Made by a program: the position numbers and the translations under genes. The notes beneath the pieces were generated by a model. The model did no database searches and was not told the DNA's origin. It worked only from the letters and a program-made list of their open reading frames with translations. Shown here one piece after another: positions 1 to 62,995 of a stretch of 64,000 nt of DNA (the first letter of the stretch is position 1; each line of letters starts with the position of its first letter). The DNA comes from Sphyrna mokarran. Its lineage: Eukaryota. The stretch spans positions 84,568,001 to 84,632,000 of the forward strand of contig JAGIQG010000013.1 of NCBI GenBank assembly GCA_024679065.1, given 5' to 3'.

Positions 1-3000
1 CAATGTGGGACCCAGGGACCACAGGGCAATGTGGGACCCAGGGACTATAGGGCAATGTGGAACACGGGGACCATAGGGCAATGTGGGACCGGGGACCATA
101 GGGCAATGTGGGACCGGGGACCATAGGGCAATGTGGGACCCGGGGACTATAGGGCAATGTGGGACCCAGGGACCACAGGGCAATGTGGGACCCGGGGACT
201 ATAGGGCAATGTGGGACCTGAGGACTATAGGGCAATGTGGGACACGGGACCACAGGGCAATGTGGCACCCGGGGACTATAGGGCAATGTGGGACACGGGA
301 CCATAGGGCAATGTGGGACACGGGACTACAGGGCAATGTGGGACCCAGGGACCACAGGGCAATGTGGGACCCGGGGACTATAGGGCAATGTGGGACACGG
401 GACCATAGGGCAATGTGGGACCCGGGGACTATAGGACAATGTGGGACCCGGGGACTAGAGGGCAATGTGGAACACGGGGACTATAGGGCAATGTGGGACC
501 CGGGACTATAGGGCAATGTGGGACCCGGGGACTATAGGGCAACGTGGACCGGGGACTATAGGGCAACAGGGACCCGGGGACTATAGGGCAATGTGGGACC
601 CGGGGACTATAGGGCAATGTGGGACCGGGGACTATAGGACAATGTGGGACACGGGACTATGGGCAATGTGGGACACGGGACTATAGGGCAATGTGGGACC
701 GGGGACTTAGGGCAATGGGACCCGGGGACTATAGGCAATGTGGCACGGGACTTAGGGCAATGTGGACCGGACTATAGGACAATGTGGGACCGGACTATAG
801 GGCAACGTGGGACCGGGACTATAGGGCAATGTGGGACAGGGGATATAGGGCAATGTGGGACCTGGGGACTTAGGGCAATGTGGGACCCTGGGACTATAGG
901 GCAATGTGGGACACGGGGACTATAGGACAATGTGGGACCCGGGGACTATAGGGCAACATGGGACCTGGGGACTATAGGACAATGTGGGACTCGAGGACTA
1001 TAGGGCAATGTGGGACACGGGACTATAGGACAATGTGGGACACGGGACTATAGGACAATGTGGCACCCGGGACTATAGGGCAATGTGGGACCCGGGACTA
1101 TAGGGCAATGTGGGACACGGGACCATAGGGCAATGTGGGACCGGGGACTATAGGACAATGTGGGACACGGGACTATAGGGCAATGTGGGACACGGGACTA
1201 TAGGGCAATGTGGGACCCGGGATAGGACAATGTGGGACCGGGACTATAGGGCAATGTGGGACACGGGACCATAGGGCAATGTGGACAGGGACTATAGGCA
1301 AGTGGGACACGGGGACTATAGGGCAATGTGGGACACGGGACTATAGGACAATGTGGGACATGGGACTATAGGGCAATGTGGGACATGGGACTATAGGACA
1401 ATGTGGGACCCGGGACTATAGGACAATGTGGGACCCGGGACTATAGGACAATGTGGGACACGGGACCATAGGGCAATGTGGGACCGGGGACTATAGGGCA
1501 ATGTGGGACACGGGACTAAAGGACAATGTGGGACACGGGACCATAGGGCAATGTGGGACACGGAACTATAGGGCAATGTGGGACACGGGGAGTATAGGGC
1601 AATGTGGGACACGGGACTATAGGACAATGTGGGACCCGGGGACTATAGGACAATGTGGGACCCGGGGACTATAGGGCAATGTGGGACCCGGGGACTATAG
1701 GACAATGTGGGACATGGGACTATAGGGCAATGTGGGACATGGGACTATAGGACAATGTGGGACCCGGGACTATAGGACAATGTGGGACCCGGGACTATAG
1801 GACAATGTGGGACACGGGACTATAGGGCAATGTGGGACCGGGGACTATAGGGCAATGTGGGACCCGGGACTATAGGACAATGTGGGACACGGGACTATAG
1901 GGCAATGTGGGACACGGGCTATAGGGCAATGTGGGACCCGGGGACTATGGACAATGTGGGACACGGGACTATAGGGCATGTGGGACACGGGACTATAGGG
2001 CAATGTGGGACATGACTATAGGACAGTGGGACATGGACTATAGGGCAATGTGGGACACGGGACTATAGGACAATGTGGGACATGGGACTATAGGACAATG
2101 TGGGACCCGGGGACTATAGGGCAATGTGGGACATGGGACTATAGGACAATGTGGGACCCGGGGACTATAGGACAATGTGGGACATGGGACTATAGGACAA
2201 TGTGGGACACGGGGACTATAGGGCAATGTGGGACCCGGGAACTATAGGACAATGTGGGACATGGGACTATAGGGCAATGTGGGACACGGGACTATAGGGC
2301 AATGTGGGACCCGGGGACCAAAGGGCAATGTGGGACCCAGGGACTATAGGGCAATGTGGGACCCGGGGACTATAGGGCAATGTGGGACCCGGGGACCAAA
2401 GGGCAATGTGGGACGCAGGGACTATAGGGCAATGTGGGACCCGGGGACTATAGGGCAATATGGGACCCGGGGACCAAAGGGCAATGTGGGACACGGGACT
2501 ATAGGACAATGTGGGACCCGGGGACTATAGGGCAATGTGGGACACGGGACTATAGGGCAATGTGGGACCCGGACTATAGGACAATGTGGACATGGGACTA
2601 TAGGGCAATGTGGGACCCAGGGACTATAGGGCAATGTGGGACATGGGGACTATAGGGCAATGTGGGACACGGGACTATAGGACAATGTGGGACCTGGGGA
2701 CTGTAGGACAATGTGGGACCCGGGGAGTATAGGGCAATGTGGGACCCGGGACTATAGGGCAATATGGGACACGGGACTATAGGACATGTGGGACCCGGGA
2801 CTACAGGCAATGTGGGACATGGGACTATAGGACAATGTGGGACCCGGGACTATAGGGCAATGTGGGACACGGGACTATAGGGCAATGTGGGACCCGGGGA
2901 CTATAGGGCATGTGGGACCGGGGACTATAGGACAATGTGGGACCTGGTGACTATAGGGCAATGTGGGACCCGGGGACTATAGGGCAATGAGGGACCTTGG

Positions 3001-4830
3001 GACTATAGGACAATGTGGGACACGGGACTATAGGGCAATGTGGGACCCGGGGACTATAGGGCAATGTGGGACCCGGGGACTATAGGGCAATGTGGGACAT
3101 GGGACTATAGGGCAATGTGGGACCTGGGGACTCTAGGACAATGTGGGACATGGGACTATAGGGCAATGTGGGACACGGGACTATAGGACAATGTGGGACA
3201 TGGGACTATAGGGCAATGTGGGACATGGGACTATAGGACAATGTGGGACCCGGGACTATAGGACAATGTGGGACCCGGGACTATAGGACAATGTGGGACA
3301 CAGGACCATAGGGCAATGTTGGACCGGGGACTATAGGGCAATGTGGGACCGGGGACTATAGGACAATGTGGGACACGGGACTATAGGGCAATGTGGGACC
3401 TGGGGACTATAGGACAATGTGGGACATGGGACTATAGGGCAATGTGGGACACGGGACTATAGGACAATGTGGGACATGAGACTATAGGGCAATGTGGGAC
3501 ATGGGACTATAGGACAATGTGGGACCCGGGACTATAGGACAATGTGGGACCCGGGACTATAGGACAATGTGGGACACGGGACCATAGGGCAATGTGGGAC
3601 CGGGGACTATAGGGCAATGTGGGACATGGGACTATAGGACAATGTGGGACACGGGACCATAGGGCAATGTGGGACACGGGACTATAGGGCAATGTGGGAC
3701 ACGGGACTATAGGGCAATGTGGGACACGGGACTATAGGGCATGTGGGACCCGGGGACTATGGGCAATGTGGACCCGGGACTATAGGGCAATGTGGGACCC
3801 GGGGACTATAGGGCAATGTGGGACACGGGACTATAGGACAATGTGGGACCCGGGGACTATAGGACAATGTGGGACCCGGGGACTATAGGACAATGTGGGA
3901 CCCGGGACTATAGGACAAGTGGGACATGGGACTATAGGGCAATGTGGGACATGGGACTATAGGACAATGTGGGACACGGGACTATAGGGCAATGTGGGAC
4001 CCGGGGACTATAGGACAATGTGGGACACGGGACTATAGGGCAATGTGGGACACGGGACTATAGGGCAATGTGGGACATGGGACTATAGGACAATGTGGGA
4101 CATGGGACTATAGGGCAATGTGGGACACGGGGACTATAGGACAATGTGGGACATGGGACTATAGGACAATGTGGGACCCGGGGACTATAGGGCAATGTGG
4201 GACACGGGACTATAGGGCAATGTGGGACATGGGGACTATAGGGCAATGTGGGACATGGGACTATAGGACAATGTGGGACCCGGGGACTATAGGGCAATGT
4301 GGGACATGGGACTATAGGACAATGTGGACCAGGGGACTATAGGACAATGTGGGACATGGGACTATAGGACAATGTGGGACACGGGGACTATAGGGCAATG
4401 TGGGACCCGGGGACTATAGGACAATGTGGGACATGGGACTATAGGGCAATGTGGGACCCAGGGACTATAGGGCAATGTGGGACATGGGGACTATAGGGCA
4501 ATGTGGGACACGGGACTATAGGACAATGTGGGACCTGGGGACTGTAGGACAATGTGGGACCCGGGGAGTATAGGGCAATGTGGGACCCGGGACTATAGGG
4601 CAATATGGGACACGGGACTATAGGACAATGTGGGACCCGGGACTATACAATGTAGGACTATAGGACAATGTAGGGCAATGTGGGACACGGGACTATAGGA
4701 CCGGCAGGCAATGTGGGACCTGGGGACTGTAGGACAATGTGGGACACGGGGACTATAGGGCAATGTGGGACACGGGGACTATAGGGCAATGTGGGACCCG
4801 GGGACTATAAGGGCAACATGGGACCTGGAT
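1..4830. repeat. Tandem minisatellite, ~24-25 bp unit (gggactatagggcaatgtgggaccc)
   Basis: Directly visible array of roughly 195 units; runs into a tRNA-SINE head at ~4821-4864 (ggacctggatttgaatcccgccacagcagatggtgaaatttgaa). Confidence 0.97.
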
Positions 4831-4873
4831 TTGAATCCCGCCACAGCAGATGGTGAAATTTGAAGTATAGCAC

Positions 4874-5697
4874 AGAACATAGAACAATACAGCACAGAAA
4901 CAGGTCCCTCAGCCTATTACAGCACAGAAATAGGCCCTTCAGCCTATTACAGCACAGACCAGGCCTTTCAGCCTATTACAGCACAGAAACAGGCCCTTTG
5001 GCCCATTACAGCACAGGAACAGGCCCTTCAGCCCATTACAGCACAGGAACAGACCCTTCAGCCTATTACAGCACAGAAACAGGGTCTTCAGCCTTTTACA
5101 GCACGGAATCAGGCCCTTTGGCCCATTACAGCACAGGAACAGACCCTTCTGTCTATTACAGCACAGGAACAGGCCCTTTAGCCTATTATAGCACAGAAAC
5201 AGGGTCTTCAGTCTTTTACAGCATGGAATCAGGCCCTTTGGCCCATTGCAGCTCAGGAACAGGCCCTTTGGCCCATTACAGCACAGGAATAGACCCTTCA
5301 GCCCATTACAGCACAGGAACAGACCCTTCAGCCTATTACAGCACAGGAACAGGCCCTTCAGCCCATTACAGCACAGGAACAGACCCTTCAGCCTATTACA
5401 GCACAGAAACAGGCCCTTTGGCCCATTACAGCACAGGAACAGACCCTTCAGCCTATTACAGCACAGGAACAGGCCCTTCAGCCCATTACAGCACAGGAAC
5501 AGACCCTTCAGCCTATTGCAGCACAGAAACAGGCCCTTCAGCCCATTACAGCACAGGAACAGACCCTTCAGCCTATTACAGCATGGAAACAGGCCCTTCG
5601 GCCCATTACAGCACAGGAATAGACCCTTCAGCCTATTACAGCATGGAAACAGGCCCTTTGGCCCATTACAGCACAGGAACAGACTCTTCGGCCCATC
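4874..5697. repeat. 30-bp tandem repeat derived from a CR1/SINE 3' end (tacagcacaggaacaggcccttcagcccat)
   Basis: Starts with the CR1 tail microsatellite (agaacatagaac); the unit matches the reverse complement of CR1 3' ends elsewhere in the window (e.g. ~24770-24810). Confidence 0.93.
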
Positions 5698-8557: not shown

Positions 8558-8839
8558 TTTCTCCTTCAGTGACCATCTCCTTCATTGACTTGGAAGCTAC
8601 TGAGCATCCCAGCCAGCTGCAGTGCACTGTGGCTGGCTTCTACCCACGGGCTCTCAATGTGAGCTGGCTGAAGGATGGTAGGAGCATTGAGCAGCATATA
8701 ACACACACTCCGATCCTGCCTAACAGTGAGAACACCTTCCAGACTGCTGCATACATCAATATTGAGCCCAGCACAGGGAACAACTACACCTGCCTTGTGG
8801 AGCATGTCACCTTTCCCCAGGGGCACCGCATTAACTGGG
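8558..8839 (+). CDS. Gene A: MHC C1-set Ig domain exon (class I alpha3 / W-category beta2-like)
   Basis: tgcttag|TT TCT CCT...AAC TGG G|gtaggt, 282 bp, phase 1-1; xSPSVTIS...LQCTVAGFYPRALNVSWLKDG...ILPNSENTFQT...YTCLVEHVTF...INW. Confidence 0.93.
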
Positions 8840-8943
8840 GTAGGTAACCTTACCCTCCTCAAGACACACATTGCACAGGAGCCTACTGCTGTGTTTGAGC
8901 TAGAGGCAAATAGATTTACAATGCATACCGACAGTGCAGCAAG

Positions 8944-9850
8944 AGCTTTAATCTGTATCTAACCTCATGCTGTACCTGTCCTAGGAGTGTTTGATGGGGA
9001 CAGTGTAGGGGGAGATTTACTCTGTATCTAACCCCATGCTGTACCTGTCCTGGGAGTGTTTGATGCGGGGACAGTGTAGAGGGAGCTTTATTCTGTATCT
9101 AACCCCATGCTGTATCTGTCCTGGGAGTGTTTGATGGGGACAGTGTAGAGAGAGCTTTATTCTGTATCTAACCCCATGCTGTACCTGTCCTGGGAGTGTT
9201 TGATGGGGACAGTGTAGAGAGAGCTTTACTCTGTATCTAACCCCGTGCTGTACCTGTCCTGGGAGTGTTTGATGGGGACAGTGTAGAGGGAGCTTTACTC
9301 TGTATCTAACCCCGTGCTGTACCTGTCCTGGGAGTGCTTGATGGGGGGACAGTGTAGAGGGAGCTTTACTCTGTATCTAACCCCGTGCTGTACCTGTCCT
9401 GGGAGTGTTTGATGGGGGACAGTGTAGAGGGAGCTTTACTCTGTATCTAACCCCGTGCTGTACCTGTCCTGGGAGTGTTTGATGGGGGACAGTGTAGAGG
9501 GAGCTTTACTCTGTATCTAACCCCGTGCTGTACCTGTCCTGGGAGTGTTTGATGAGAGGACAGTGTAGAGGGAGCTTTACTCTGTATCTAACCCCGTGCT
9601 GTACCTGTCCTGAGAGTATTTGATGGGGGGACAGTGTAGAGGGAGCTTTACTCTGTATCTAACCCCATGCTGTACCTGTCCTGGGAGTATTTGATGGGGG
9701 ACAGTGTAGAGGGAGCTTTACTCTGTATCTAACCCCGTGCTGTACCTGTCCTGGGAGTGTTTGATGGGGGGACAGTGTAGAGGGAGCTTTACTCTGTATC
9801 TAACCCCATGCTGTACCTGTCCTGGGAGTGTTTGATGGGGGACAGTGTAG
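8944..9850. repeat. ~58-60 bp tandem repeat (ctttactctgtatctaaccccgtgctgtacctgtcctgggagtgtttgatggggacagtgtagagggag)
   Basis: About 15 visible units in the gene A intron. Confidence 0.95.
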
Positions 9851-9996
9851 AAGAAATTGGTTGCTGGTTTATCTGGAAAAGGGCTGGTGTATAATTCTGT
9901 AGGCTGTAGGAGTCGAGGTTTGGAGAAATGCTGAATTGGAAGATTTTTATTATCATTCCCTGTTTGTTTTTCCTTCATTTTCGGCCTGTGTGGAAG

Positions 9997-10107
9997 TCCC
10001 CCCACATCGCAGCTCAGTGTCGCCTGCTGCCATTGTTGGAATTGTGTTCGGAATTGTGGGAATCATTGCAGCTGTAGTTGGAGGTCTAGTTCGGATGAAG
10101 CGTCAAG
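9997..10107 (+). CDS. Gene A: connecting peptide/transmembrane exon
   Basis: Long polypyrimidine tract then aag|TC CCC...CAA G|gtatgg, 111 bp, phase 1-1; VPPHRSSVSPAAIVGIVFGIVGIIAAVVGGLVRMKRQ. Confidence 0.88.
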
Positions 10108-17027: not shown

Positions 17028-17057
17028 GGTGAGCAGCAGATGGCTCTTTTTGCTCAT

Positions 17058-20000
17058 CCCTGTAACCTCCTACAACCCCTACACCCCCTCCCTATCTCTG
17101 TAACCTCCTCCAGCCCCTACACCCCCCTCCCTATCTCTGTAACCTCCTCCAGCCCCTACACCCCCTCCCTATCTCTGTAACCTCTCCAGCCCCCTACACC
17201 CCCTCCTATCTCTGTAACCTCCTCAGCCCCTACACCCCCTCTATCTCTGTAACCTCCTCCAGCCCCTACACCCCCTTCCTATCTCTGTAACCTCCTCCAG
17301 CCCCTACACCCCTCCTATCTCTGTAACATCCTTCAGCCCCTACAACCCTTCCTATCTCTGTAACCTCCTCAGCCCCTATAACCCTTCCTATCTCTGTAAC
17401 CTCCTTCAGCCCCTACAACCCTCGCTATCTCTGTAACCTCCTCCAGCCCCTACAACCCTCCCTATCTCTGTAACCTCCTCCAGCCCCTACAACCCTCCCT
17501 ATCTCTGTAACCTCCTCCAGCCCCTACAACCCTCCCTATCTCTGTAACCTCCTCCAGCCCCTACACCCCTCCCTATCTCTGTAACCTCCCCAGCCCCTAC
17601 ACCCCTCCCTACTCTGTAACCTCCTCCAGCCCCTACACCCCCTCCCTATCTCTGTAACCTCCTCCAGCCCCTACACCCCCTCCCTATCTCTGTAACCTCC
17701 TCCAGCCCCTACACCCCCTTCCATATCTGTAACCTCCTCCAGCCCCTACACCCCCTCCCTATCTCTGTAACCTCTCCAGCCCCTACACCCCCTCCCTATC
17801 TCTGTAACCTCCTCCAGCCCTACACCCCCTCCCTATCTCTGTAACCTCCTCCGCCCTACACCCCCCCCTATCTCTGTAACCCCTCCAGCCCCTACACCCC
17901 CTCCCTATCTCTGTAACCTCCTCCAGCCCCTACACCCCTCCCTATCTCTGTAACCTCCTCCAACCCCTACACCCCTCCCTATCTCTGTAACCTCTCCATC
18001 CCCCTACCCCCTCCCTATCTGTAACCTCCTCCAACCCCTACACCTCCTCCCTATCTATAACCTCCTCCAACCCCTACACCTCCTCCCTATCTACAAACTC
18101 CTCCAAACCCTACACCTCCTCCCTATCTATAACCTCCTCCAAACCCTACACCCCCTCCCTATCTATAACCTCCTCCAAACCCTACACCTCCTCCCTATCT
18201 ATAACCTCCTCCAAACCCTACACCTCCTCCCTATCTATAACCTCCTCCAAACCCTACACCCCCTCCCTATCTATAACCTCCTCCAAACCCTACACCCCCT
18301 CCCTATCTCTGTAACCTCCTCCAACCCCTACACCCCTCCCTATCTGTAACCTCCTCCAACCCCTACAACCCTCCCTATCTCTGTAACCTCCTCCAGCCCC
18401 TACCACCCCCTCCCTATCTCTGTAACCTCCTCCAGCCCCTACACCCTCCCTATCTCTGTAACCTCCTCCAGCCCTACACCCCTCCCTATCTCTGTAACCT
18501 CCTCCAGCCCCTACAACCCTCCCTATCTCTGTAACCTCCTCCAGCCCCTACAACCCTCCCTATCTCTGTAACCTCCTCCAGCCCCTACAACCCTCCCTAT
18601 CTCTGTAACCTCCTCCAACCCCTACNNNNNNNNNNNNNNNNNNNNNNNNNNNNNNNNNNNNNNNNNNNNNNNNNNNNNNNNNNNNNNNNNNNNNNNNNNN
18701 NNNNNNNNNNNNNNNNNNNNNNNNNCCTATCTCTGTAACCTCCTCCGGCCCCTACACCCCTTCCTATCTCTGTAACCCCCTCCGGCCCCTACACACCATC
18801 CTATCTCTGTAACCTCCTTCGGCCCCTACACACCATCCTATCTCTGTAACCTCCTTCGGCCCCTACACACCATCCTATCTCTGTAACCTCCTCCGGCCTC
18901 TACACCCCTTCCTATCTCTGTAACCTCCTCCAGCCCCTACACCCCTCCCTATCTCTGTAACCTCCTCCAGCCCCTACACCCCTCCCTATCTCTGTAACCT
19001 CCTCCAGCCCCTACACCCCCTTCCTATCTCTGTAACCTCCTCCAGCCCCTACACCCCCTTCCTATCTCTGTAACCTCCTCCAGCCCCTACACCCCTCCCT
19101 ATCTCTGTAACCTCCTCCAGCCCCTACACCCCCTCCCTATCTCTGTAACCTCCTCCAGCCCCTACACCCCCTCCCTATCTCTGTAACCTCCTCCAGCCCC
19201 TTACACCCCCTCCCTATTCTGTAACCTCCTCCAGCCCCTACACCCCCTCCCTATCTCTGTAACCTCCTCCAGCCCCTACACCCCCTTCCTATCTCTGTAA
19301 CCTCCTCCAACCCCTACCCCCCCTTCCTATCTCTGTAACCTCCTCCAGCCCCTACATCCCCTTCCTATCTCTGTAACCTCCTCCAGCCCCTACATCCCCT
19401 TCCTATCTCTGTAACCTCCTCCAGCCCCTACACCCCCTTCCTATCTCTGTAACCTCCTCCACCCCTACATCCCTCCCTATCTCTGTAACCTCCTCCAGCC
19501 CCCTACACCCATCCCTATCTCTGTAACCTCCTCCAGCCCCTACATTCCCTCCCTCCCTATGTCTGTAACCTCCTCCAGCCCCCTACACCCCCTCCCTATC
19601 TCTGTAACCTCCTCCAGCCCCCTACACCCCCTCCCTATCTCTGTAACCGCCTCCAGCCCCTACACCCCCTCCCTATCTCTGTAACCTCCTCCAGCCCTAC
19701 ACCCCTTCCTATCTCTGTAACTCCTCCATCCCCTAGCCCCTCCCTATCTCTGTAACCTCTCCAACCCCTACACCCCCTTCCTATCTCTGTAACCTCCTCC
19801 AAACCCCTACCCCCCCTTCCTATCTCTGTAACCTCTCCAGCCCCTACATCCCCTTCCTATCTCTGTAACCTCCTCCAGCCCCTACATCCCCTTCCTATCT
19901 CTGTAATCTCCTTCAAGCCTACACCCCCTTCTTATCTCTGTAAATTCCACCAACCCTTACACCCCTCCCAATCACTGTGGCCTCCTCCAGCCCCTACATC
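17058..20000. repeat. ~33-35 bp tandem repeat (cctatctctgtaacctcctccagcccctacacccct), contains N gap 18626-18725
   Basis: Directly visible; a further degenerate unit at ~24321-24350 lies beyond the CR1 insertion. Confidence 0.96.
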
Positions 20001-38382: not shown

Positions 38383-39645
38383 TGAAGTTTCACAACACCA
38401 ATTTTAAATCCAACAGATTTATTTGATAGTAAATTTGCCAGCTTTCGACACAATGGCCTTCGTCAGGCAAATGCAGTGTTCTGGTCTGCAATAGCACTCA
38501 TATCAACACAGTCACAGATTGCTGATTAGAATGCGAATCCTTACATCTAACCTGCTATTCAAGTGTTAAAGTGGCTAACAATGTGTGTGAAGGAATCCTG
38601 AGCATTGGTTAGAGAATTGTGTATTTTCTCCAGACAGCACAGTAAGTGAGGTTTTTTGCTAACCCAGGCAAGTTACGGGGGTTACAGATAGTGTGTCATG
38701 AAGCCAAGATCCCTGTTAAGACCGTCCTCATGTGTGCGGAACTTGGCTATCAGTCTCTGCTCAGCGACTCTGCGCTGTCGTGTGTCACGAAGGCCCCCTT
38801 GAAGAACATTTACCCGCAGGTCGGAGGCCGAATGCCCATGACTGCTGAAGTGTTCGCCCACAGGAAGGGAACTGTTTTGCCTGGTGATTGTTGAGCGATG
38901 CTCATTCATCCGCTGTTGTAGTGTCTGCATGGTCTCCCCAATGTACCATGCTTCGGGACATCCTTTCTTGCAACGTATTAGGTAGACAACGTTGGCCGAG
39001 TTGCAAGAGTATGTACCGTGTACCTGGTGAATGGTATCCTCACGTTTGATGATGTCGTCCATGTCTATGATCTGGCATGTCTTGCAGAGGTTGCTGTGGC
39101 AGGGTTGTGTGATATTGTGGTCACTGTTCTCCTGAAGGTTGGGTAGTTTGCTGCGAACAATGATCTGTTTGAGGTTGTGCGGTTGTCTGAAAGCAAGAAG
39201 TGGGGGGGTGGGGATGGCCCTAGCGAGATGTTCATCGTCATCAATGATATGTTGAAGACTCCGGAGAAGATGTCGTAGCTTCTCCGCTCCGGGGAAGTAC
39301 TGGACAACAAAGGGTACTCTGTCCACCGTGTCCCGTGTTCGTCTTCTGAGGAGGTCAGTGCGGTTTATCGTTGTGGCACGTCGGAACTGTCGATCGATGA
39401 GTCGAGCACCATATCCTGTTCTCACGAGGGCATCCTTCAGCGTCTGGAGGTGTCTGTCACGATCCTCCTCATCTGAGCAAATTCTGTGTTTACGGAGGGC
39501 TTGTCCATAGGGAATGGCTTCTTTAACGTGTCTAGGGTGGAAGCTGGAGAAGTGGAGCATTGTGAGGTTGTCTGTCGGTTTGCAGTACAGTGAGGTACTG
39601 AGGTGACCGTCCTTGATGGAGATGCGTGTGTCCAAGACACACATT
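38383..39645 (-). mobile_element. Penelope-like element, 3' part: RT thumb + GIY-YIG endonuclease + LTR
   Basis: Open frame ~39640-38682: TSLYCKPTDN, HPRHVKEAIPYGQA, CKTC, NVVYLIRCKKGCPEAWYIGET, RMNEH, VGEHF, GLNRDLG. Confidence 0.95.
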
Positions 39646-40064
39646 GTCCCACCTAGTGGACAATGGTGTGATTGTGGTGTCCAACTCCCTTCATTCGAAA
39701 CAGATTCCTTTCTATAGAACCATGATAGGAAGTCACATGGGACAGGTTCCAACAAAGCCTGACACCCCCAAGACACATAAGATTGAGATAAGCTCCAGGA
39801 TTGCATGTGGAATCACTGATTGAGCTCTCTGTCGCATCATTCTTTATTCATTCATGAGACATGGGCGTCACTGATTGGCCAGCATTTACTCATAAAATGC
39901 TGCAGTGCAGAATGAGATCATTCAGCCCATCGAGTCTGTCCCAACCACAAACCCACCAAGGCCCAAGCCCCATAACCCCCATGCATTCACCCTCCTAATC
40001 TCCGTCACTAAGAGACAATTTAGTACAGCCAATCCACCTAACCTGAACATCTTTACATTTCATC

Positions 40065-43241: not shown

Positions 43242-43267
43242 TTAAGCCTCTCCTTGTGTCCACATTC
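43242..43267 (-). CDS. Gene B: candidate last coding exon (GMWTQGEA*)
   Basis: tctgactgcgttttgcttcccag|GA ATG TGG ACA CAA GGA GAG GCT TAA; phase 1; size and position parallel to the gene A last exon. Confidence 0.45.
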
Positions 43268-46587: not shown

Positions 46588-46662
46588 CTGAATCTGCTGC
46601 AGAGGAATCGGGATTGACCTGTCTCTGGTTTGGCACAGCTTCAGAGCCATAGGCAGAGAATC
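46588..46662 (-). CDS. Gene B: cytoplasmic exon (GFSAYGSEAVPNQRQVNPDSSAADS)
   Basis: tttctttcccag|GA TTC...TCA G|gtaatag, 75 bp, phase 1-1; ends like gene A exon 15821-15907. Confidence 0.65.
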
Positions 46663-48062: not shown

Positions 48063-48167
48063 CTCTGTACCTGCCGATGCCTCCAGCCAGGGCAATGATG
48101 ATTCCAGCAACCCCGATTACAATCCCAGCCACATATCCGTGAGTTGGCCAACTTTTCACCTTGACAG
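48063..48167 (-). CDS. Gene B: connecting peptide/transmembrane exon
   Basis: gatccacag|CT GTC...AGA G|gtaaaa, 105 bp, phase 1-1; AVKVKSWPTHGYVAGIVIGVAGIIIALAGGIGRYR (not in the ORF track). Confidence 0.88.
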
Positions 48168-49350: not shown

Positions 49351-49632
49351 CCCAGGTTGCAGTTAGCTTGTCGGTGCTGCTACTGTGCTCCACTTGGCAG
49401 GTGTAGATATCTCTGCTCTGGGGAGTGATGCTGATTTGCAGGGTCGTCTGGAAAGTCCCGTCTGAATTTGGTAAAATCCTGCTCCTCAGCATCTCCTGCT
49501 GGACACTGCCAGTGTTGTGCAGCCAGGTTGCGTTGATATCACTTGGATAGAACCCGTTCACGTGACAGATAAGAAGTAAAGGGTCATCCTCTCTGTGCAG
49601 GCGATGTGCAGTTATGTTGACAGAGGGCTTGG
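49351..49632 (-). CDS. Gene B: MHC C1-set Ig domain exon (class I alpha3 / W-category beta2-like)
   Basis: ctctacag|CC AAG...ACC TGG G|gtaagc, 282 bp, phase 1-1; AKPSVNIT...LLICHVNGFYPSDINATWL...ILPNSDGTFQT...YTCQVEHSS...TATW. Confidence 0.94.
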
Positions 49633-52917: not shown

Positions 52918-54008
52918 GGAGATGCCGGTGTTGGACTGGGGTGAACACGGTAAGGAGTCTCACAACACCAGGTTAAAGTCCAATACGTTTCTTAGGTAGC
53001 AAACGCCACTAGCTTTTGGAACGCTGCTCCTTCATCAGGGCAGATAAAAACAGAAACTCAATTTACAAAATAATGGTTGAAATGCGAGTCTTTACAGGTA
53101 ATCAAGTCTTAAAGGTACAGATAATGCGAATGGAGAGAGAGTGTTAAGCACAGGTTAAAGAGATGTGTATTGTCTTCAGACAGCACAGTAAGTGAGGTTG
53201 TTTATTAACCCAGGCAAGTCATGGGGGTTACAGATAGTGTGACATGAAACCAAGATCCCGGTTGAGACCGTCCTCATGTGTGCGGAACTTGGCTATCAGT
53301 CTCTGCTCAGCGACTCTGCGCTGTCGTGTGTCACGAAGGCCCCCTTGAAGAACATTTACTCGAAGATCAGTGGTTGAATGCCTGCGACCGCTGAAGTGTT
53401 CGCCAACAGGAAAGGAGTAGTCTTGCCTGGTGATTGTCGAGCGATGTTCATTCATCCATTGTCGTAGTGTCTGCACAGTCTCCCCAATGTACCATGCCTC
53501 AGGATATCCATTCCTGCAGCGTATCAGGTAGACAATGTTGGCCGAGTTGCTTGAGTATGTGCCATGTACCTGGTGGATGGTGTTCTCACGCGGAATGATG
53601 GTATCCATGTCGATGATCCGGCATGTCTTGCAGAGGTTGCTGTGGCAGAGTTGTGTGGTGTCGTGGTCACTGTTCTTCTGAAGGCTGGGTAGTTTGCTGT
53701 GGACAATTTCTGCTTGAGGTTGTGCGGTTGTTTGAAGGCAAGAAGTGGTGGTGTGGGGATGGCCCTGGTGAGATATTCGTCATCAATGACATGTTGAAGA
53801 CTCCGGAGAAGATGTTGTAGCTTCTCCGCTCCAGGGAAGTACTGGAAAGGTGAAGGGTACTCTGTTCTCTGTGTCCTGTGTTTGTCTTCTGAGGGAGGTC
53901 GATGCGGGTTTTCGCTGTGGTGCATCGGAACTGTCAATCGGTGAGTCAAACGCCATATCTTGTTCTTATGAGGGCATCTTTTAGTGTCTGGAAGTGTCTG
54001 TTGCGATC
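52918..54008 (-). mobile_element. Penelope 3' part (GIY-YIG + LTR), inverted partner of the adjacent copy
   Basis: NIVYLIRCRNGYPEAWYIGET...GLNRDLG; LTR hammerhead decayed (GAAA to AAAA). Confidence 0.92.
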
Positions 54009-56460
54009 TACAAGAACACGCTACTATCTACGTGTACACCAAGAACAGAAAACTTGAGAAACTTGACATCACCAGCAGCAGCAACCAAGCCTCCTGAGAT
54101 ATCACACTGAAAACAGTACCACTGCAGGGAAGTCCATCGTTAACTTGTCAGACTATACATTTCAACCAGATGAAATCAAAGTTCTCAGCTGAGGGCTCAA
54201 TTTCTGCCCCACCATCAAAACAGACCTCATCAGTCTCGCAGCAGACGCAGAGGAATTCATCAGGTGAATGAGGCTGTGGGAGTTTTTCCACAAACCCCAA
54301 GAGGCCAACAGCGAACACAATGAAACAGCCAATGAAGCAGAACGGCCGACAGAGAAATCTACAGTGCAGCAACCAAAGAGGAAAGAGTCCAATTGGACTC
54401 CTCCGGAAGGCTACTGCCCTTGACTTGACGTATGCCCAAGCCATTAGGACATGTGTCAATACCAGATTCATCAACCACACTTACAAGACAGCCCTGAGCA
54501 TCACCAAAGCACCACGCAACATCATCCGTGCTCTCGAGACGAACCGCAACATTGTCATCAAACCAGCAGACAAAGGAAGGGCCATCGTCATACTGAACAG
54601 AATAGATTACTGCAAAGAAGTGTACCGACAACTGAACAACAAGGAACATTACAGACAGATCCGATCAAAGAACACACTTGTCAACTCAACACTCTGATCA
54701 AGACCTTTGATCCGGACCTTCAGACCATCCTCTGTGCTCTTATCCCACGTGCTCCCCACATTGGAGATCTCTACTGCCTCCCAAAAATACACAAGGCAAA
54801 CACACCTGGCCGTCCCAATGTATTGAACAATGGTACCCTGTGTGAGAACCTCTTCAGCTACGTCAAGGCCATCCTGAAACCCACTGTACAAAAAACCTCC
54901 AGCTTTTATTGTGAAACTACAGACTTCCCTCAGAAACTCAGCAGTTAAACCAGGATCACTTCTAATTGCAATGGATTTAGATAGTTTCATGGGTACAATG
55001 GGTATAGAGGGATATGGGCCAGATGTGGGCAATTGGGACTAGTTTAGGGGTTTAAAAAAAAGAGTGGCATGGACAAGTTGGGCCAAAGGGTCTGTTTCCA
55101 TGCTGTAAACCTCTCTGACTCTATTCTGGACCACAATGTCTTCACCTTCAACAACCAGTTCTTTATCCAAACACATGGAACAGCCATGGGGACCAAATTC
55201 ACACTTCAGTATGCCAACATCTTCACGCACAGGTTCGAACAAGATTCCTTCACCGCACAGGACCTTCAACTGATGCTATACATCAGATACACTGATAACA
55301 TTTTCTTCCTTTGGACTCATGGTGAGCAATCGCTGAAACAACTATATGATGACATCAACAAACTCCATTCCACCATCACACTCACCATGGACTATTCTCT
55401 AGAATCGGTTGCATTCTTGGACACACACGTCTCCATCAAGGACGGTCACCTCAGCACCTCTCTGTACCGCAAACCCACAGATAACCTCACAATGCTCCAC
55501 TTCTCCAGCTTCCACTCTACACACGTTAAAGAAACCATCCCCTATGGACAAGCCGTCCGTATCACAAGATCTGCTCAGATGAGGAGGATCGTGACAGGTA
55601 CCTCCAGAGGCTGAAAGATGCCCTCATGAGTACAGGATATGGTGCTTGCCTCATCGATCAACAGTTACATGTCACAGCAAAAAACCGCACCAACCTCCTC
55701 AGAAGACAAACACGGGACACGGTGGACAGAGTACCCTTCATCATCCAGTACTTCCCCAGAGCAGAGAAGCGACGACATCTTCTCTGGAGTCTTCAACATG
55801 TCATTGCTGAAGACGAACATCTCGCCAGGGGCATCCCACACCCTCAATTCTTGCCTTCAGACAACCGCACAACCTCAAATAGACCATTGTCCACAGCAAA
55901 CTACTCAGGCTTCAGGAGAACAGTGACCACAATACCACACAACACTGCCACAGCAACCTCTGCAAGACATGCCAGATCATCGATCATCATTTCACGTGAG
56001 AACACCATCCACCAGGTACACGGTACATGCTCTTGCAACTCGGCCAACGTTGTCTACCTGATACGCTGTAGGAATGGATATCCTGAGGCATGGCACATTC
56101 GGAAGACCATGCAGAAACTACGACAATGGATGAATGAACATCGCTCGACAATCAGCAGGCAAGACTGTTCTCTTCCTGTTGGCGAACATTTCAGCGGTCA
56201 TGGGCATTCAGCCTTTGATCTTTGGGTAAATGTTCTCCAAAGCAGCCTTCACTTCACAACAGCGCAGAGTTGCTGAGCAGAGACTGATAGCCAAGTTCCG
56301 CACACGTGAGAACGGCCTCAACTGGGATCTTGAGTTCATGTCACACTATCTGTAACCCCCCATGACTTGCAACATCTCACTAACTGTCCTGGCTGGAGAC
56401 AATACACATCTCTTTAACCTGTGCTTAACGCTCTCTCCCCTCACATTGGCTGTACCTTGA
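54009..56460 (+). mobile_element. Penelope-like element, long decayed ORF (RT + GIY-YIG), with a CR1 tail insertion at ~54965-55120
   Basis: IVIKPADKG, LYCLPKIHK, QTHGTAMG, YIRYTDNIF, SLYRKPTDN, NVVYLIRC. Confidence 0.93.
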
Positions 56461-56592
56461 GAGTGTGAGCAAGGGTGTGAACGTGAGCGAGTCTGAATGT
56501 GTGAGCGAGTGTGTGTGTGTGTGTGAGTGTACGCTTGTGTGTGTGTGTGTGTGTGTGTGCAAGCGAGTGTTATTCACTTTAATGTCACTTAC

Positions 56593-56850
56593 CAATCAGC
56601 CTGTGAGCTACCTGTATAACATTCTCTGCCACGAGGGGTGCGAATGAGCCATAACGGATATACCGTTTGACCATCCTCTCATTCGCATTGAGACTCTGGA
56701 TGAATGGTTCTGCTACTGGTTTAGTGGCCACGAACTGATTGGTGGAATAGTTGAATCGGATAAACTCTGTCCCGTCGTAGGCAGCACTCAGCTTTGTGGC
56801 TGGGGTTTGGGAATTATCAAAGGTGAGCTTTAACTGGATGATGTGTGTCC
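56593..56850 (-). CDS. Gene B: MHC membrane-distal domain exon (class I alpha2 / class II beta1-like, no Cys)
   Basis: ttttctcatccag|GG ACA CAC...ATT G|gtaagt, 258 bp, phase 1-1; GTHIIQLKLTFD...AAYDGTEFIRFNYSTNQFVATKPVAEPFIQSLNAN...AHRLI. Confidence 0.88.
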
Positions 56851-56984
56851 CTGGATGAGAAAAGCAGGGCAATTAATCTGAGTAACCATTCCGAATCCAA
56901 CAACTGCATCTGACCTTTCCCTCTGGAAACCCCCTCCCCCACAAATTCCTTCCCTTCATCGACTACGTTGGCCCACGTTTAGTT

Positions 56985-58970
56985 TGCAGATCACAGTAAG
57001 ATTGGCCGTGTGGTTAACAGTGAGACGGAATGTCTTGGGCGATAAGAATTTATAGACGGAACGGTCAAATGGGTGAATAAATGGGCGGATGGGATTTAAC
57101 CCTGAAAAGTGAGGTGACACACTTTGGAAGGAGTAATTTGACAAGGAAGAACTCAATGAATGGTAGGACACTAGGAAGATCAGTGGAGCAAAGGGATCTT
57201 GGTGTATTTGTCCACAGATCTCGGAAAGCGGAAGGCATGTTAGTCGGGTGGTGAAAAAGGGCAGATTGGACACTCGCCTTTATCAATCCAGGCACAGATT
57301 ACAAAAGCAGAGAGGTCATGTTGGAGTTGTATTGAATTTGGTGAAGCCCCACAGCTGAAGCACTGTGTGCAGTTCTGGGTCACCACATTATAGGAAGGAT
57401 GTGATTGTACTGGAGGGGGGCAGAGGAGATTCACCAGGGATGGGACGGAACATTTAAGTTATGAAGTGAGGTTGGATAGACTTGGGCTGTTTTCATTGGG
57501 ATACCAGAACACCTCATTCACCTGACAAAGGCCATAGAGCCGAAAGCTTACGAGTTCACTATCAAATAAATCGGTTGGATTTAAAACTGATGTTCTCAGT
57601 CTTTTAACTGTTTTCATTGGAGCAGGGAAGACTGAGGGATGATCTGATCGAGGTGTACAAGATTATGAGGGGCACGGACAGAGTGGATAAGGAGCAGCTG
57701 TTCCCTTTAGTTGAAGAGTCAGTCACGAGGAGGACACAGGTGAGGGGCAGGAGGTTTAGAACATAGAACATTACAGCGCAGAACAGGCCCTTCGGCCTTC
57801 GATGTTGTGCCGACCAATTAAGAAAAAGCAATGACCCTCTAACCTAAACCATTCCCTTTTCATCCATAAACCTATCTACTAACCTCTTAAACGCCACCAA
57901 ACTTGGCGCATCTACAACTGACACAGGCAAGGCATTCCATACCCTTACCACCCTCTGGGTAAAGAACCTACCTCTGACATCCGTCCTAAAACCACCACCC
58001 TTAATTTAAAGCTATGTCCCCTCGTGCTAGTTTTCTCCATCCTAGGAAAAAGGCTATCACCGTCCACCCTATCTAAACTTCTAATCATCTTATATGTTTC
58101 AATAAGGTCTCCTCTTAGCCGCCTCCTTTCTAACGAAAACAACCTCAAATCCCTCAGCCTCTCTCATAAGACCTGCCCTCCATACCAGGCAACATCCTGG
58201 TAAACCTCCTCTGTACCCTCTCCAATGCCTTCACATCTTTCTTATAATGCGGGGACCAGAACTGCACACAATACTCCAAGTGCGGCCGCACTAGAGTTTT
58301 GTACAGTTGCAACATGACGTTGCGGCTCCGAACTTCAATCCCCCTACCAATAAAAGCTAAGACTCCATATGCCTTCTTAACAACCTTATCGACTTGATTG
58401 CCAACTTTCAGGGATCTATTGACATATACACCAAGATCCCTCTGTTCGTCAACACTGTTGAGAGTCCTACCATTAGCCCTATACTCTACACCTTTGTTAT
58501 TCCTGCCAAAGTGAATTACCTCACACTTTTCCACATTAAACTCCATTTGCCACCTCTCGGCCCAGCTCTGCAACTTGTCCAAGTCTCTCTGCAAACTATA
58601 ACACCCTCTTCACTATCTACCACTCCTCCGACTTTGGTGTCATCCGCAAATTTACTAATCCATCCTTCAATACCCTCATCCAGATCATTTATAAAAATTA
58701 CAAACAGCAGTGGCCCCAAAACAGATCCCTGAGGGGGGATGTGAGAAGAAGCTTTCTACCCAGAGGGTGGTAGAATGTGCTGCCTGGGAGGGTGGAAGAG
58801 GCAGGGTGCCTCACATCCTTTAAAAAGTACCTGGAGAAGCACTTGGCACATCATCACATTTGGGGCTCTGGGCCAAGCGCTAATGGATGGGATTAGGTGG
58901 GAGACGATGTGTTTTAATGTGTCAGTGGAAACTCGATGGGCTGAAGGGCCACTTCTATACTATAAGATTT
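56985..58970. mobile_element. Nested cluster: decayed + strand CR1, interrupted by a Penelope LTR fragment (~57500-57600) and a younger - strand CR1 (~57758-58730)
   Basis: CR1 RT translations on both strands; LTR motif cctgacaaaggccatagagccgaaagctt. Confidence 0.88.
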
Positions 58971-59182
58971 GATGATTCACAATATTCAATATCCTCTATC
59001 ACCCCCCCCCCACCACCACCACCGCACCCCCCACCCTCCCAACCCGCTACCCTCTGGCCCCCTCCCAGTCGTCCTTACCCACCCACACACTCCCCCATCC
59101 CCTGGCAACTCAAGCAAACTTCCTCTCTCGGGGGCAGTGAGAGGGTGAGGAGGAGGCAGCTCTGAACACTCCCCAGACCGGG

Positions 59183-59231
59183 ATGCTCGGAAACGCCATG
59201 CTCCTACTGCTGGGACTCTTCCAGACTGCAG
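59183..59231 (+). CDS. Intact signal-peptide exon MLGNAMLLLLGLFQTA (inverted copy; probably the true gene B leader sequence)
   Basis: ATG CTC GGA AAC GCC ATG CTC CTA CTG CTG GGA CTC TTC CAG ACT GCA G|gtaagc; phase 1 joins in frame to GTHIIQ, but on the wrong strand as assembled. Confidence 0.65.
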
Positions 59232-61756
59232 GTAAGCGGTGGAGAAGGAGGGGGGCGGAGAGAGGGAGGAAGGAGTGGGGGGGGAAATGAGATGGAGAAG
59301 GAGGGGGGGGAGAGAGGGAGAAGGAGGTTGGGGAGAGAGGGGAGAAGAAGGAGGGTGGGGGGACGAGAGAGGGAGACGGAGGGGGGAGGAGAGAGGGAGG
59401 ACGGATGGTGGGGGGGAGAGAGGGAGAAGGAGGTGGGTGGTGAGAGAGGGAAAGGAGGGGGGAGGGAGAGGGAGAAGGAGGGGGGAGGAGAGAGGGAGAA
59501 GCGAGGGGGGGGGAAAGAGAGGGAGAAGGGGGGGGAGGAGAGGGGGAGGAAGAGGGGGAGGAGAGAGGAGAAGGAACGGTAGACACACACAGGGGGGCGG
59601 GGGGAGTAGAGGGGAGGGGGGGGCGAGAGGAGGGANNNNNNNNNNNNNNNNNNNNNNNNNNNNNNNNNNNNNNNNNNNNNNNNNNNNNNNNNNNNNNNNN
59701 NNNNNNNNNNNNNNNNNNNNNNNNNNNNNNNNNNNNNNNNNNNNNNNNNNNNNNNNNNNNNNNNNNNNNNNNGAGAGGGAGGGGGGGAGAGCGGGAGGGA
59801 GGGGGGGTGGGGGAGAGAGAGGGATGGGGGGGGAGAGAGGGGAGGGGGGGGATGAGATGGAGGGGGAGGAGAGAGAGGAGGGGGGGGAGAGAGAGGGAGG
59901 GGGGGGAGAGAGAGGGAGGGGGGGGAGAGAGAGGGAGGGGGGGGGAGACGAGAGAGGGAGGGGGGGAGGAGAGAGAGGGAGAGGGGGTGGGAGAGAGAGG
60001 AGGGGGGGGAGAGAGGAGGGAGGGGGGAGAGAGAGGGATGGGGGGGAGAGANNNNNNNNNNNNNNNNNNNNNNNNNNNNNNNNNNNNNNNNNNNNNNNNN
60101 NNNNNNNNNNNNNNNNNNNNNNNNNNNNNNNNNNNNNNNNNNNNNNNNNNNNNNNNNNNNNNNNNNNNNNNNNNNNNNNNNNNNNNNNNNNNNNNNNNNN
60201 NNNNNNNNNNNNNNNNNNNNNNNNNNNNNNNNNGGGGAGAGAGGGGGGGGGGAGGGGGAGGGGGGAGGGGTGGGATGGGGGGGAGGGAGGGAGGGGGGAT
60301 GTGGGGGCGGGGGGAGGATGGGGGGGAGGGGGGATGTGGGGGGGGAGCGCGGAGAAGAGGGAGGGGGGAGAGAGGGAGGGGGGGCGGAGAGACGGAGGAG
60401 GAGAGGGACGGGAGAGAGAGAGAGAGACGAGGGGAGAGAGGCGGGAGGGAGGGAGACGGCGGGAGGGAGGGAGGGAGGGGAGGGAGGAGAGGGGGGGGGT
60501 TGGCAGAGATAGGAGGGAGGGGGCCTGTGGAGAAAGGAGGGAGGTGGGGCTGTGAAAGAGAGAGGAGGAGGGGGGCTGTGGAGAGAGAGGAGGGGGGGGC
60601 TGTGAGAAGAGGAGGGAGGGGGGCTGTGAGAGAGAGGAGGGAGGGGGGCTGTGAGAGGAGGAGGGAGAGAGATGGGCGGCAGAGAGAAAGAGAAGGAAGG
60701 AGGGTGCAGAGAGAAGAAAGAGGAGGGGGGGGCGCAGAGAAGAGAAAGAGAGAGGAGGGGTGCACAAAGGACAGAGGGGGGAGCTGAGAGAGAGGAGTGG
60801 GGTCAGCATGTGTGGTGGTGGGTGGTGTGTGAGGGGGGGGGGGGGGGGGTGGGGCGTATGGGGGGTGGGTGGGGGGGTGGGGTGGGGTGTCGGAGGGGGC
60901 AGGGTGGGGGGGGGAGGGGGGAGGGGGGGGGTGGACGGGGGAGGGTGGAGGATTGGAATGGAGGTGGAGTAGGGGGGGGGTGAGGGGTGGGGGGGGGGTG
61001 AGGGGTGGGGGGTGGTGGGGTGGAAGTTATCACAAATTACCTCACACCCGCCATACCTCCATGCTCCAAAACCAAAACCCCCCACCACCCCCAAATCCCT
61101 GATCCCTTCTACACCACACACCCCCCCCCATTCACCCTACACCACCACCCAACCCCAAACCCCCCAAAAACCATCCCCCACCCCATCCCCCACTCACCAC
61201 CCTCAACCACCATCAGCACCCCCTCAACTCCCCACCACCATCCAGCACCCCAGCTCCCCCTTCCACCAACCCTAGCAACCGCCTCCTCACCATCTAATCC
61301 CATCCACCACACTTGATCCCAACTTTCCCCAAGGGGTCAACCAACACTACACCACCCCCCCAACCCCCACCCCACCACAACATGCTGACCCCCACATCCT
61401 CCCTCCCTCCCACTCCTTCCCCTATCTCCCTCCACACCTCTCCCTCTCTCCCACCCCACTCCTCTCTCACCTCTCCCCTCCCCGCACTCCTTCTCCCTCT
61501 ACCCTTCCCCCCACACTCTTCTCCCTCTCTCCCTCCCCCAACTCCTTCTCTCTCTCACTTCCCCCATCATTCTCCCATCTCTCCCTCCCCCACTCTTCTC
61601 CCTCTCTCCCTCCCCCCAACTCCTTCTCCCTCTCTCCCTCCCCCCACTCCTTCTCCCTCTATCCCTCCCCCCCACTCCTTTCCTCTCTCCCTCCCCCCCC
61701 CCGCCTTATCCCTGTCTCTCTCTCCTCCCCCCCCCCCCCCCTTCTCCACCGCTAAC

Positions 61757-61804
61757 CTGCAGTCTGGAAGAGTCCCAGCAGTAAGGAGCATGGCGTTCGA
61801 GCAT
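61757..61804 (-). CDS. Gene B leader exon in the correct orientation, frameshifted as assembled
   Basis: Reverse-complement copy of 59183-59231 with small indels and a gttagc donor; surrounded by error-prone homopolymer sequence. Confidence 0.6.
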
Positions 61805-61953
61805 CCCGGTCTGGGGGAGTTGTTCAGAGCTTGCCTCCTCCCTAACCCTCTCACTGCCCCCGAGCCAGAGGAAGTTTGCTTTGAGTCGAGAAAATGCACC
61901 TTTCCTTACTCGCTGCTTCCTGCTTCTGCTTCCAGCTGCGATCTTTCAGAGGG

Positions 61954-62051
61954 ATGAGATTTCATCCCAATTACAGCCGGCGCTGTGCACAGAGTCACTC
62001 CTCCTCCTCCTTCCTCCTCATCACAACGGGAACAGGCGCACCCAGCAACCG
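61954..62051 (+). other. Candidate leader exon of a third, divergently transcribed gene
   Basis: gggATGaga..., (ctc)n Leu-coding run then FLLITTGTGAPSN, strong donor cg|gtgagt followed by a G-rich intron like that of the gene B leader; frame ambiguous. Confidence 0.4.
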
Positions 62052-62052
62052 G

Positions 62053-62930
62053 TGAGTGAAGGATGGGAGGAGGGAGAGGGAGAGGGAGAGGAGAGAGGGG
62101 AGAGGGAGAACGGGCAGGGGAGGGGGGGGAGGCGGGAGGAGGGGGAGGGGAGGGGGGAGGGGGAGGGGGGGTGGAGGAGGGGGGAGGGGGGGGGATTTTT
62201 GAGGGAGGGGGGGGAGGGGGGGGGGGAGGGGGGGGAGGGGGGGGGAGGGGGGGGGAGGGGGGGGGGGAGGGGGGGGGGTCCGTGAGACGGGCGGGGGGAG
62301 AGTGGAGAGCGGGATGAAAAAAGGGGAGGGGTAAGGAGGGGAGGGGGGAGGGGTTAAGGAGGGGAGAGGGGGGAGGGAGTTAAGGAGGGGGGGGTAAGGA
62401 CGGGGGGGAAGGAGGGGGGGGGGGGAAGAAGGAGGGGGGGGGGAGGGAGGGAGGGGGGGGGCGGGAGGGAGGGGGGGGGGAGGAGGGAGGGGGGNNNNNN
62501 NNNNNNNNNNNNNNNNNNNNNNNNNNNNNNNNNNNNNNNNNNNNNNNNNNNNNNNNNNNNNNNNNNNNNNNNNNNNNNNNNNNNNNNNNNNNNNNNNNNN
62601 NNNNNNNNNNNNNNNNNNNNNNNNNNNNNNNNNNGGGGGAGGGGAGGGAGGGGGGGGGGAGGGAGGGGGGGGAGGGGAGGGATGGGGCGGGTGAGGAGTG
62701 AGTGGGGGAGGGGAGGGGGGGGGAGGGGAGGGGGGGGGAGGAGGTGGGGGGGGGGGGGAGGGGGGGGGCCGGGAGGGGGGAGGGGATGGAGGGGGGAGGG
62801 GAGGGAGGGGGGGGGGAGGGAGGGGGGGGTAATGCCTTTTTAATACAAACGATTAGTGGGGGGGGGGGGGGAGGGGGGGGCCGGGGGGGTTGGGGTAGGG
62901 GCGGGGGGGGGGGGTGGCCGGGGGGGGGCT

Positions 62931-62995
<65 letters not shown>

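Follow-up and report, generated by a model that had tools for sequence, protein, structure and literature searches.

We asked whether a small island of complex sequence near the right end of a 64,000-nt stretch of the Sphyrna mokarran genome (the window) holds the first exon of a gene lying head to head with a minus-strand gene, gene B, and what chain such a partner would encode. Positions follow window numbering, extended past 64,000; adding 84,568,000 gives the contig position. Partner exons were sought in the window, in 120 kb to its right and in 50 kb to its left. Gene B starts at CAT 61802–61804, that is, with an ATG on the minus strand, and a plus-strand ATG stands at 61954, both where an earlier note on this DNA had placed them. 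The peptide FLLITTGTGAPSN reads in the frame of ATG 61954 and is followed by a plus-strand donor, CG/GTGAGT, with its GT at 62052 (slashes mark exon borders), again as the note had described. The same holds for the setting, a small island between two low-complexity tracts, and for a G-rich intron start mirroring that of the gene B leader, G-rich tracts being present on each side. A Leu-coding (ctc)n run stood in part: the run encodes Leu in another frame, whereas the frame of ATG 61954 reads SSSS. Most likely, the island is the first (leader) exon of a shark W-category MHC alpha-chain gene that lies head to head with its beta-chain partner.

Exons and lineages of the two genes

The other exons of the partner had been expected past the window, and alpha1, C1 and CP/TM/CY exons were indeed found on the plus strand (Table 1), with the distal-domain and C1 exons 14 and 24 kb past the donor. 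The alpha1 and alpha2 exons have canonical splice sites and phase 1/1. Three proteins were found among 187 candidates in the alpha1 protein search: Mustelus P0001 and P0002 and Triakis P0003. By eye, P0003 agrees with the ‘banded houndshark WA DS10 01’ rows in Datasets S1–S3 of Okamura et al. 2021 (PMC8713811), and the WA exons are 81–87% identical to this houndshark sequence. For alpha2, identity is 63% to a Carcharodon homolog, as compared to 87% to P0003, a pattern that indicates a ground shark. Pfam at E 0.1 returned no family for the WA alpha1 exon or the TM exon.

Residues of the C1 domain were compared with beta2-microglobulin, which is contained in 58 of the 60 best of 128 matched PDB rows for WA alpha2. 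The alpha2 segment LWYGEDWRF aligns to LSFSKDWSF of beta2-microglobulin, and W61 occurs together with L55 and Y57 (RLWYGEDWRF, aligned also to P0003). The check suggested earlier for beta2-microglobulin-like F56 and W60 thus gave Y at the F56 position and W60, corresponding to Y57 and W61 in the numbering of PMC8713811. Alpha2 has L37 (TITITLQ) in place of the immunoglobulin W37, while beta2 has W there (ATWLH). Two W-category marks are missing by eye, with F8 instead of Y8 in alpha2 and E30 instead of V30 in alpha1. The houndshark WA DS10 type rows carry the same F8 and E30, and Y8 and V30 are common, not universal, in the family. Because the family's own DS10 member lacks Y8 and V30, F8 and E30 do not exclude W-category membership. 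WA alpha2 (L005:2367–2645) also has one more Cys (QSVCRAH), presumably without a pairing partner, at a position occupied by Arg in Triakis, Mustelus and blue shark (QAVRRAH). In Carcharodon, protein P0005 joins a DS10-like leader, alpha1 and alpha2 to a DS5-like partial alpha1, alpha2 and TM; two WA genes have probably been fused in its annotation.

The five downstream exons of gene B resemble Mustelus P0004 (Table 1) and also match the WB DS1 rows in the PMC8713811 datasets. Its beta2 domain (SRILPNSDGTF) combines P57 and G61 and lacks W61. By eye, beta1 has Q6, A32 and G35, and has E at position 37 where the mark is D37; E37 likewise appears in the DS1 rows of houndshark, blue shark, catshark and white shark. 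In the last WB exon, a TAA lies 18 codons before the end of P0004. Mustelus and Triakis read through at this place and the codons downstream still resemble theirs; the early TAA may be a real tail shortening or a base error. Open-frame copies resembling a mobile element, about 85% alike, lie in or near the WB gene at 38685–39812 (−) and 53112–56458, with two of them inverted around 54–55 kb. Their frame appears to resemble the GIY-YIG end of a Penelope-type element. Long minisatellite arrays occur at 1–5693, 8943–9851, 17056–19998 and 34862–35854 (units of 25, 30, 71, 37 and 33 bp).

Exon sets, phases and W-category residues, all read directly from the data like the lineage identity and one spacer-crossing contig, place the pair in the MHC W-category (WA/WB). 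Each chain follows a class II-type plan of leader, one distal domain, one C1 domain and CP/TM/CY, with the frame of the WA leader broken in the assembly. The head-to-head alpha/beta arrangement proposed earlier was confirmed, with WB on the minus strand, WA on the plus strand, ATGs 149 bp apart and the same adjacency in contig X1/3. Very probably, the partner is a WA gene of lineage DS10 and gene B a WB gene of lineage DS1: the island would hold the WA signal-peptide exon, with the WA alpha1, alpha2 and membrane exons 14–27 kb further on the plus strand, head to head with the WB leader on the minus strand.

Table 1. Coordinates of the most likely WA (DS10)/WB (DS1) pair and of associated features
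Feature	Position	Strand	Remarks
WB last coding exon	43242–43267	−	69% to P0004; TAA after ...QGEA
WB cytoplasmic exon 1	46588–46662	−	88% to P0004
WB connecting peptide/transmembrane exon	48063–48167	−	88% to P0004
WB beta2 C1-set exon	49351–49632	−	87% to P0004; P57 and G61 (ILPNSDGTF)
WB beta1 exon, 258 nt, phase 1/1	56593–56850	−	80% to Mustelus P0004; 0 differences over 257 nt in X1/3
Putative inverted rendering of WB leader and its G-rich intron start	59108–61020	+	Intact ORF 59183–59231, donor GTAAGC
WB leader exon, proper place and strand	61757–61804	−	Small indels break the frame; GTTAGC is a misread donor
Spacer between ATGs	61805–61953		149 bp in the assembly, about 141 calculated from X1/3, which spans it
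WA leader exon, coding part from upstream ATG	61954–62051	+	98 nt, phase 2 as assembled; homolog alignment, donor rank, contig X1/3
WA donor GTGAGT	62052–62057	+	Followed by G-rich start of intron 1 (13.8 kb in all)
WA intron 1, part inside window	62052–64000	+	Downstream of donor GTGAGT
WA alpha1 exon, 252 nt	75829–76080 (L004:1829–2080)	+	81% to P0003, 83% to P0002
WA alpha2 C1-set exon, 282 nt	86365–86646 (L005:2365–2646)	+	87% to P0003; L37, L55, Y57, W61
WA CP/TM/CY exon	89269–89462 (L005:5269–5462)	+	81% to P0003 over 54 aa
Second pair, WB DS3-like	8558–8839 and about 10032–10100; leader L019:5684; beta1 L019:8935–9210	+	
Second pair, WA Nds3L-like partner	Left of window (L018)	−	Leader without confident identification
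Third pair, WA DS5-like/WB Nds5-like	83,826,881–83,839,798 of same contig (L021–L023)	WA +, WB −	
Contig X1/3 (1314 nt, depth 14), positions in contig	beta1 518–774; WB leader 775–902; 61902–62051 at 914–1061		Then 253 nt

Probable leader exon of the WA gene

In the unmasked sequence between 61887 and 75828, the donor at 62052 is the only plus-strand NNG/GTRAGT. Four shark WA DS10 leaders were aligned in a frameshift-tolerant manner, anchored at the 375 GT[AG] sites between the WB beta1 and WA alpha1 exons that had no N upstream. Donor 62052 ranked first (score 76), followed by an overlapping site (30) and the next independent site (18), the mean being −72 and the s.d. 35. Used alone, the Triakis P0003 leader scored 32, which none of 391 random windows and none of 200 shuffled sequences attained. 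When the 37-aa Mustelus leader was used whole, from its upstream Met, the score was 17, attained by 20 of the random windows and 15 of the shuffled sequences.

This ranking bears on whether the island is instead the leader of a conventional MHC class II alpha gene or of some other gene, with the WA first exon hidden in masked or low-complexity sequence. Databases label the homologs class II-like, and several N stretches in 62495–63563 lay outside the scoring. Conventional class II A/B pairs share with the present pair two chains, each with leader, distal domain, C1 domain and a TM with glycines, and their A and B genes are likewise reported in opposite orientation. However, class II has an invariant alpha2 W37 and beta2 W61, where WA and WB have L37 and G61, WA alpha2 moreover carries W61, and 62052 resembles WA DS10 leaders best among the 375 donors. 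We therefore consider a class II or unrelated leader the least probable of the readings weighed here, and highly improbable in itself, and retain the assignment to WA.

The WA leader exon is thus well supported, with more than one candidate place for its start codon. The first residues of the Mustelus leader, MRF, match at ATG 61954. Three of the four homolog leaders begin at MSR(D/E), and that Met aligns to CTG 61983; together with the weak Mustelus score, this suggests that translation may start elsewhere than at ATG 61954, perhaps further in. An upstream in-frame ATG near 61894 (MHLSLLAASCFC...) was not adopted as the start, being among the least reliable bases. Read from ATG 61954, the assembled exon reaches the donor in phase 2, while the alpha1 exon needs phase 1 (3n+1), so that the assembled frame cannot be the real one. 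At the exon end, the Triakis homolog has GTGLSAT/D; the window gives GTGAPSN in one frame and ...HPAT/G in that of phase 1, consistent with an indel close to this end. The assembled frame breaks would represent long-read errors, and donor 62052 would splice to WA alpha1 in phase 1.

Read and contig evidence across the island

Four sequencing runs were compared with 56000–62051: X1, from one sample and guessed to be RNA, and the DNA runs X2, X11 and X12. For the alpha1 exon, none of the runs listed with matches was recorded as RNA. Contig X1/3 follows beta1 over 56593–56849 without a difference, passes straight into the WB leader and, after 11 letters, into 61902–62051. Along these last 150 nt it departs from the assembly at 3 letters and by 4 gaps, in line with the earlier suggestion that indel errors hide the frame. 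Among the differences listed, an A to C change at 62020 is found in X1 and not in X2.

Beyond 62051, the contig runs for 253 nt, similar to the length of the WA alpha1 exon, and X1 contains 24 of 24 sampled alpha1 words. Every candidate next exon has A as its first letter, while the intron starts with G. The simplest reading is that this part represents the WA leader spliced to alpha1, a junction we infer from length and homology. At the beta1 border, DNA run X2 (record 8) reads into the intron where X1/3 jumps to the leader, which argues that X1 is spliced RNA.

An inverted copy of the WB leader

A genome search with the WB leader returned two matches only, the minus-strand copy in the island (about 61755–61886) and an intact plus-strand copy at 59108–59242 (MLGNAMLLLLGLFQTA, ending in CAG/GTAAGC) that is 92% identical to it. 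The copies belong to an apparent inverted duplication of 59108–61020 (+) against 61020–61886 (−), 1.9 kb versus 0.85 kb, folding near 61030. Most of their differences are indels of one or two bases in short runs, and an intron landmark common to both lies at a different distance in each. Contig X1/3 matches the plus-strand copy letter for letter apart from 2 gaps, yet continues into 61902, so that this spliced contig has the sequence of the plus-strand copy with the neighbors of the minus-strand copy. Together, the shared landmark, the small-indel differences and this combination argue for two renderings of one locus, and we consider it probable that the inverted leader is an assembly artefact in a poorly polished G-rich region.

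The same data can be read as real frameshifts in the leaders, making WA and/or WB null alleles, along with a real inversion-duplication of the WB leader at 59108. The breaks are present in the assembly as given, the last WB exon has its early TAA, and X1 comes from a sample other than X2, the possible source. Runs X11 and X12, of each of which about 3 in 100 were sampled, have a depth of 0–0.3 over 61858–62051, too shallow for polishing the island or testing the inversion, and hence provided no correction. Against null alleles, the WB leader copies differ mostly by small indels at short runs, every other WA and WB exon is open with canonical splice sites, and X1/3 carries an intact leader joined to beta1 and running into the spacer. 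We judge null alleles very improbable and continue with an intact WA/WB pair.

The spacer as a candidate two-way promoter

The divergent geometry fits a bidirectional promoter, which by definition has its start sites within about 1 kb of each other and under one element. The spacer, of about 140–150 bp, likely serves as a shared two-way promoter and contains the 5′ UTRs of both genes. Contig X1/3 spans it without a break and covers both first exons, irrespective of strand and start sites. A contig over two genes demonstrates neither a single transcript nor a start site; it shows that spacer sequence is present in X1. As X1 holds sequence across the whole spacer, this is most simply explained by RNA covering it from both sides, and overlapping 5′ ends are likely, rather than an untranscribed gap.

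With the gene assignment kept, the spacer could alternatively have been bridged by genomic DNA or stray upstream transcripts, the two genes having separate, non-overlapping start sites. X1 is RNA by guess, its contigs come without strand or start, and few reads easily bridge so short a spacer. Genomic carryover is countered by the intron beside beta1 (56850–57038), unique sequence covered by DNA run X2, over which no X1 piece occurs among the records listed, and by an X1 depth of 0 in bins 61050–61453. Separate start sites remain a minority view in our estimate, doubtful although by no means negligible; this alternative touches the promoter detail alone and is compatible with the WA/WB assignment. 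Returning to overlapping 5′ ends, we lean, with modest confidence, toward a spacer of ~140 bp with overlapping 5′ UTRs and no untranscribed gap as a minimal two-way MHC alpha/beta promoter.

Motif counts added little. The spacer has no TATA and no CCAAT. GGAA, the ETS core, occurs 4 times versus 2.2 expected, a count reached in 17% of 5000 null sequences, and its enrichment was for this reason rejected as promoter evidence. Our literature search found no published promoter work on W-category genes. The main text of PMC8713811 mentions neither the length of the spacer nor a promoter (‘promoter’ has 0 matches) nor an overlap of the 5′ ends, and its SI Appendix may cover them. The very short spacer, likely covered by RNA from both sides, is the only new detail of the locus.

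Relation to other W-category loci

Head-to-head WA/WB order was published for shark pairs by Okamura et al. 2021 (PMC8713811), whose main text reports three W-category pairs in great white shark and whose Dataset S1 gives the catshark DS10L and DS1L rows a common label, 159K. Elasmobranch W-type genes are reported as multicopy and outside the MHC. The pair described here is a further shark ortholog of this published family. It is like the banded houndshark and other shark WA DS10/WB DS1 genes of PMC8713811 in lineages, exon plan, diagnostic residues and head-to-head order, as far as its main text and datasets go, and unlike houndshark DS10/DS1 in being from another species or allele, with a WB tail 18 codons shorter and an extra Cys in alpha2.

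The contig carries three head-to-head pairs: DS10/DS1, its immediate left neighbor Nds3L/DS3, and DS5/Nds5 at a distance of about 790 kb. Their lineage names were assigned by eye against the PMC8713811 datasets. In the latter two, as in DS10/DS1, the alpha and beta genes point apart. The candidate leader ATGs of DS5/Nds5 are 2153 bp apart, roughly 15 times the length of the DS10/DS1 spacer. The C1 exon at 8558–8839 (+) was rejected as belonging to the partner of gene B, as it is WB DS3 of the neighboring pair. At position 61, the DS3-like beta2 carries E in place of G (ILPNSENTF), and so do the DS3 rows of the datasets. On contig C1548, eight further C1-set exon matches, 32–40% identical to WA alpha2 and all on the minus strand, lie at 89.6–90.9 Mb.

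TAP1 and PSMB9 are divergent genes of one pathway that share one short bidirectional promoter. The present pair resembles them in having head-to-head genes on one short spacer. It differs in that WA and WB would encode two chains of one receptor, and an interferon or other element is not established here.

Proposed role and implications

In the model we propose, polymerase would start both ways from the spacer, giving matched expression of the WA and WB chains, which would enter the ER by their signal peptides. By analogy with salamander (PMC8713811), the chains may form an alpha/beta heterodimer at the cell surface, shaped like class II but with interfaces of the class I type, in which alpha2 W61, Y57 and L55 would lie under the platform and beta2 would contribute P57 and G61. 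The main text of PMC8713811 shows such a surface heterodimer for recombinant salamander WA/WB chains and finds the full set of classical peptide anchors in no W subgroup. Because of this latter finding, a non-classical role, probably not that of presenting classical peptides, appears most likely by analogy.

For genomics of the family, the DS10/DS1 locus illustrates how, in an assembly left unpolished and inverted in places, both leaders can be hidden and an intact pair can look broken. The function and regulation of W-category molecules are an open field according to the literature, and a ~140 bp spacer common to both chains is an inexpensive and well-delimited subject for reporter assays and start-site mapping. 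If the proposed promoter is real, it could be dissected base by base, and one could ask whether the proposed class I/II intermediate follows the regulation of class I, that of class II (SXY/CIITA) or neither.
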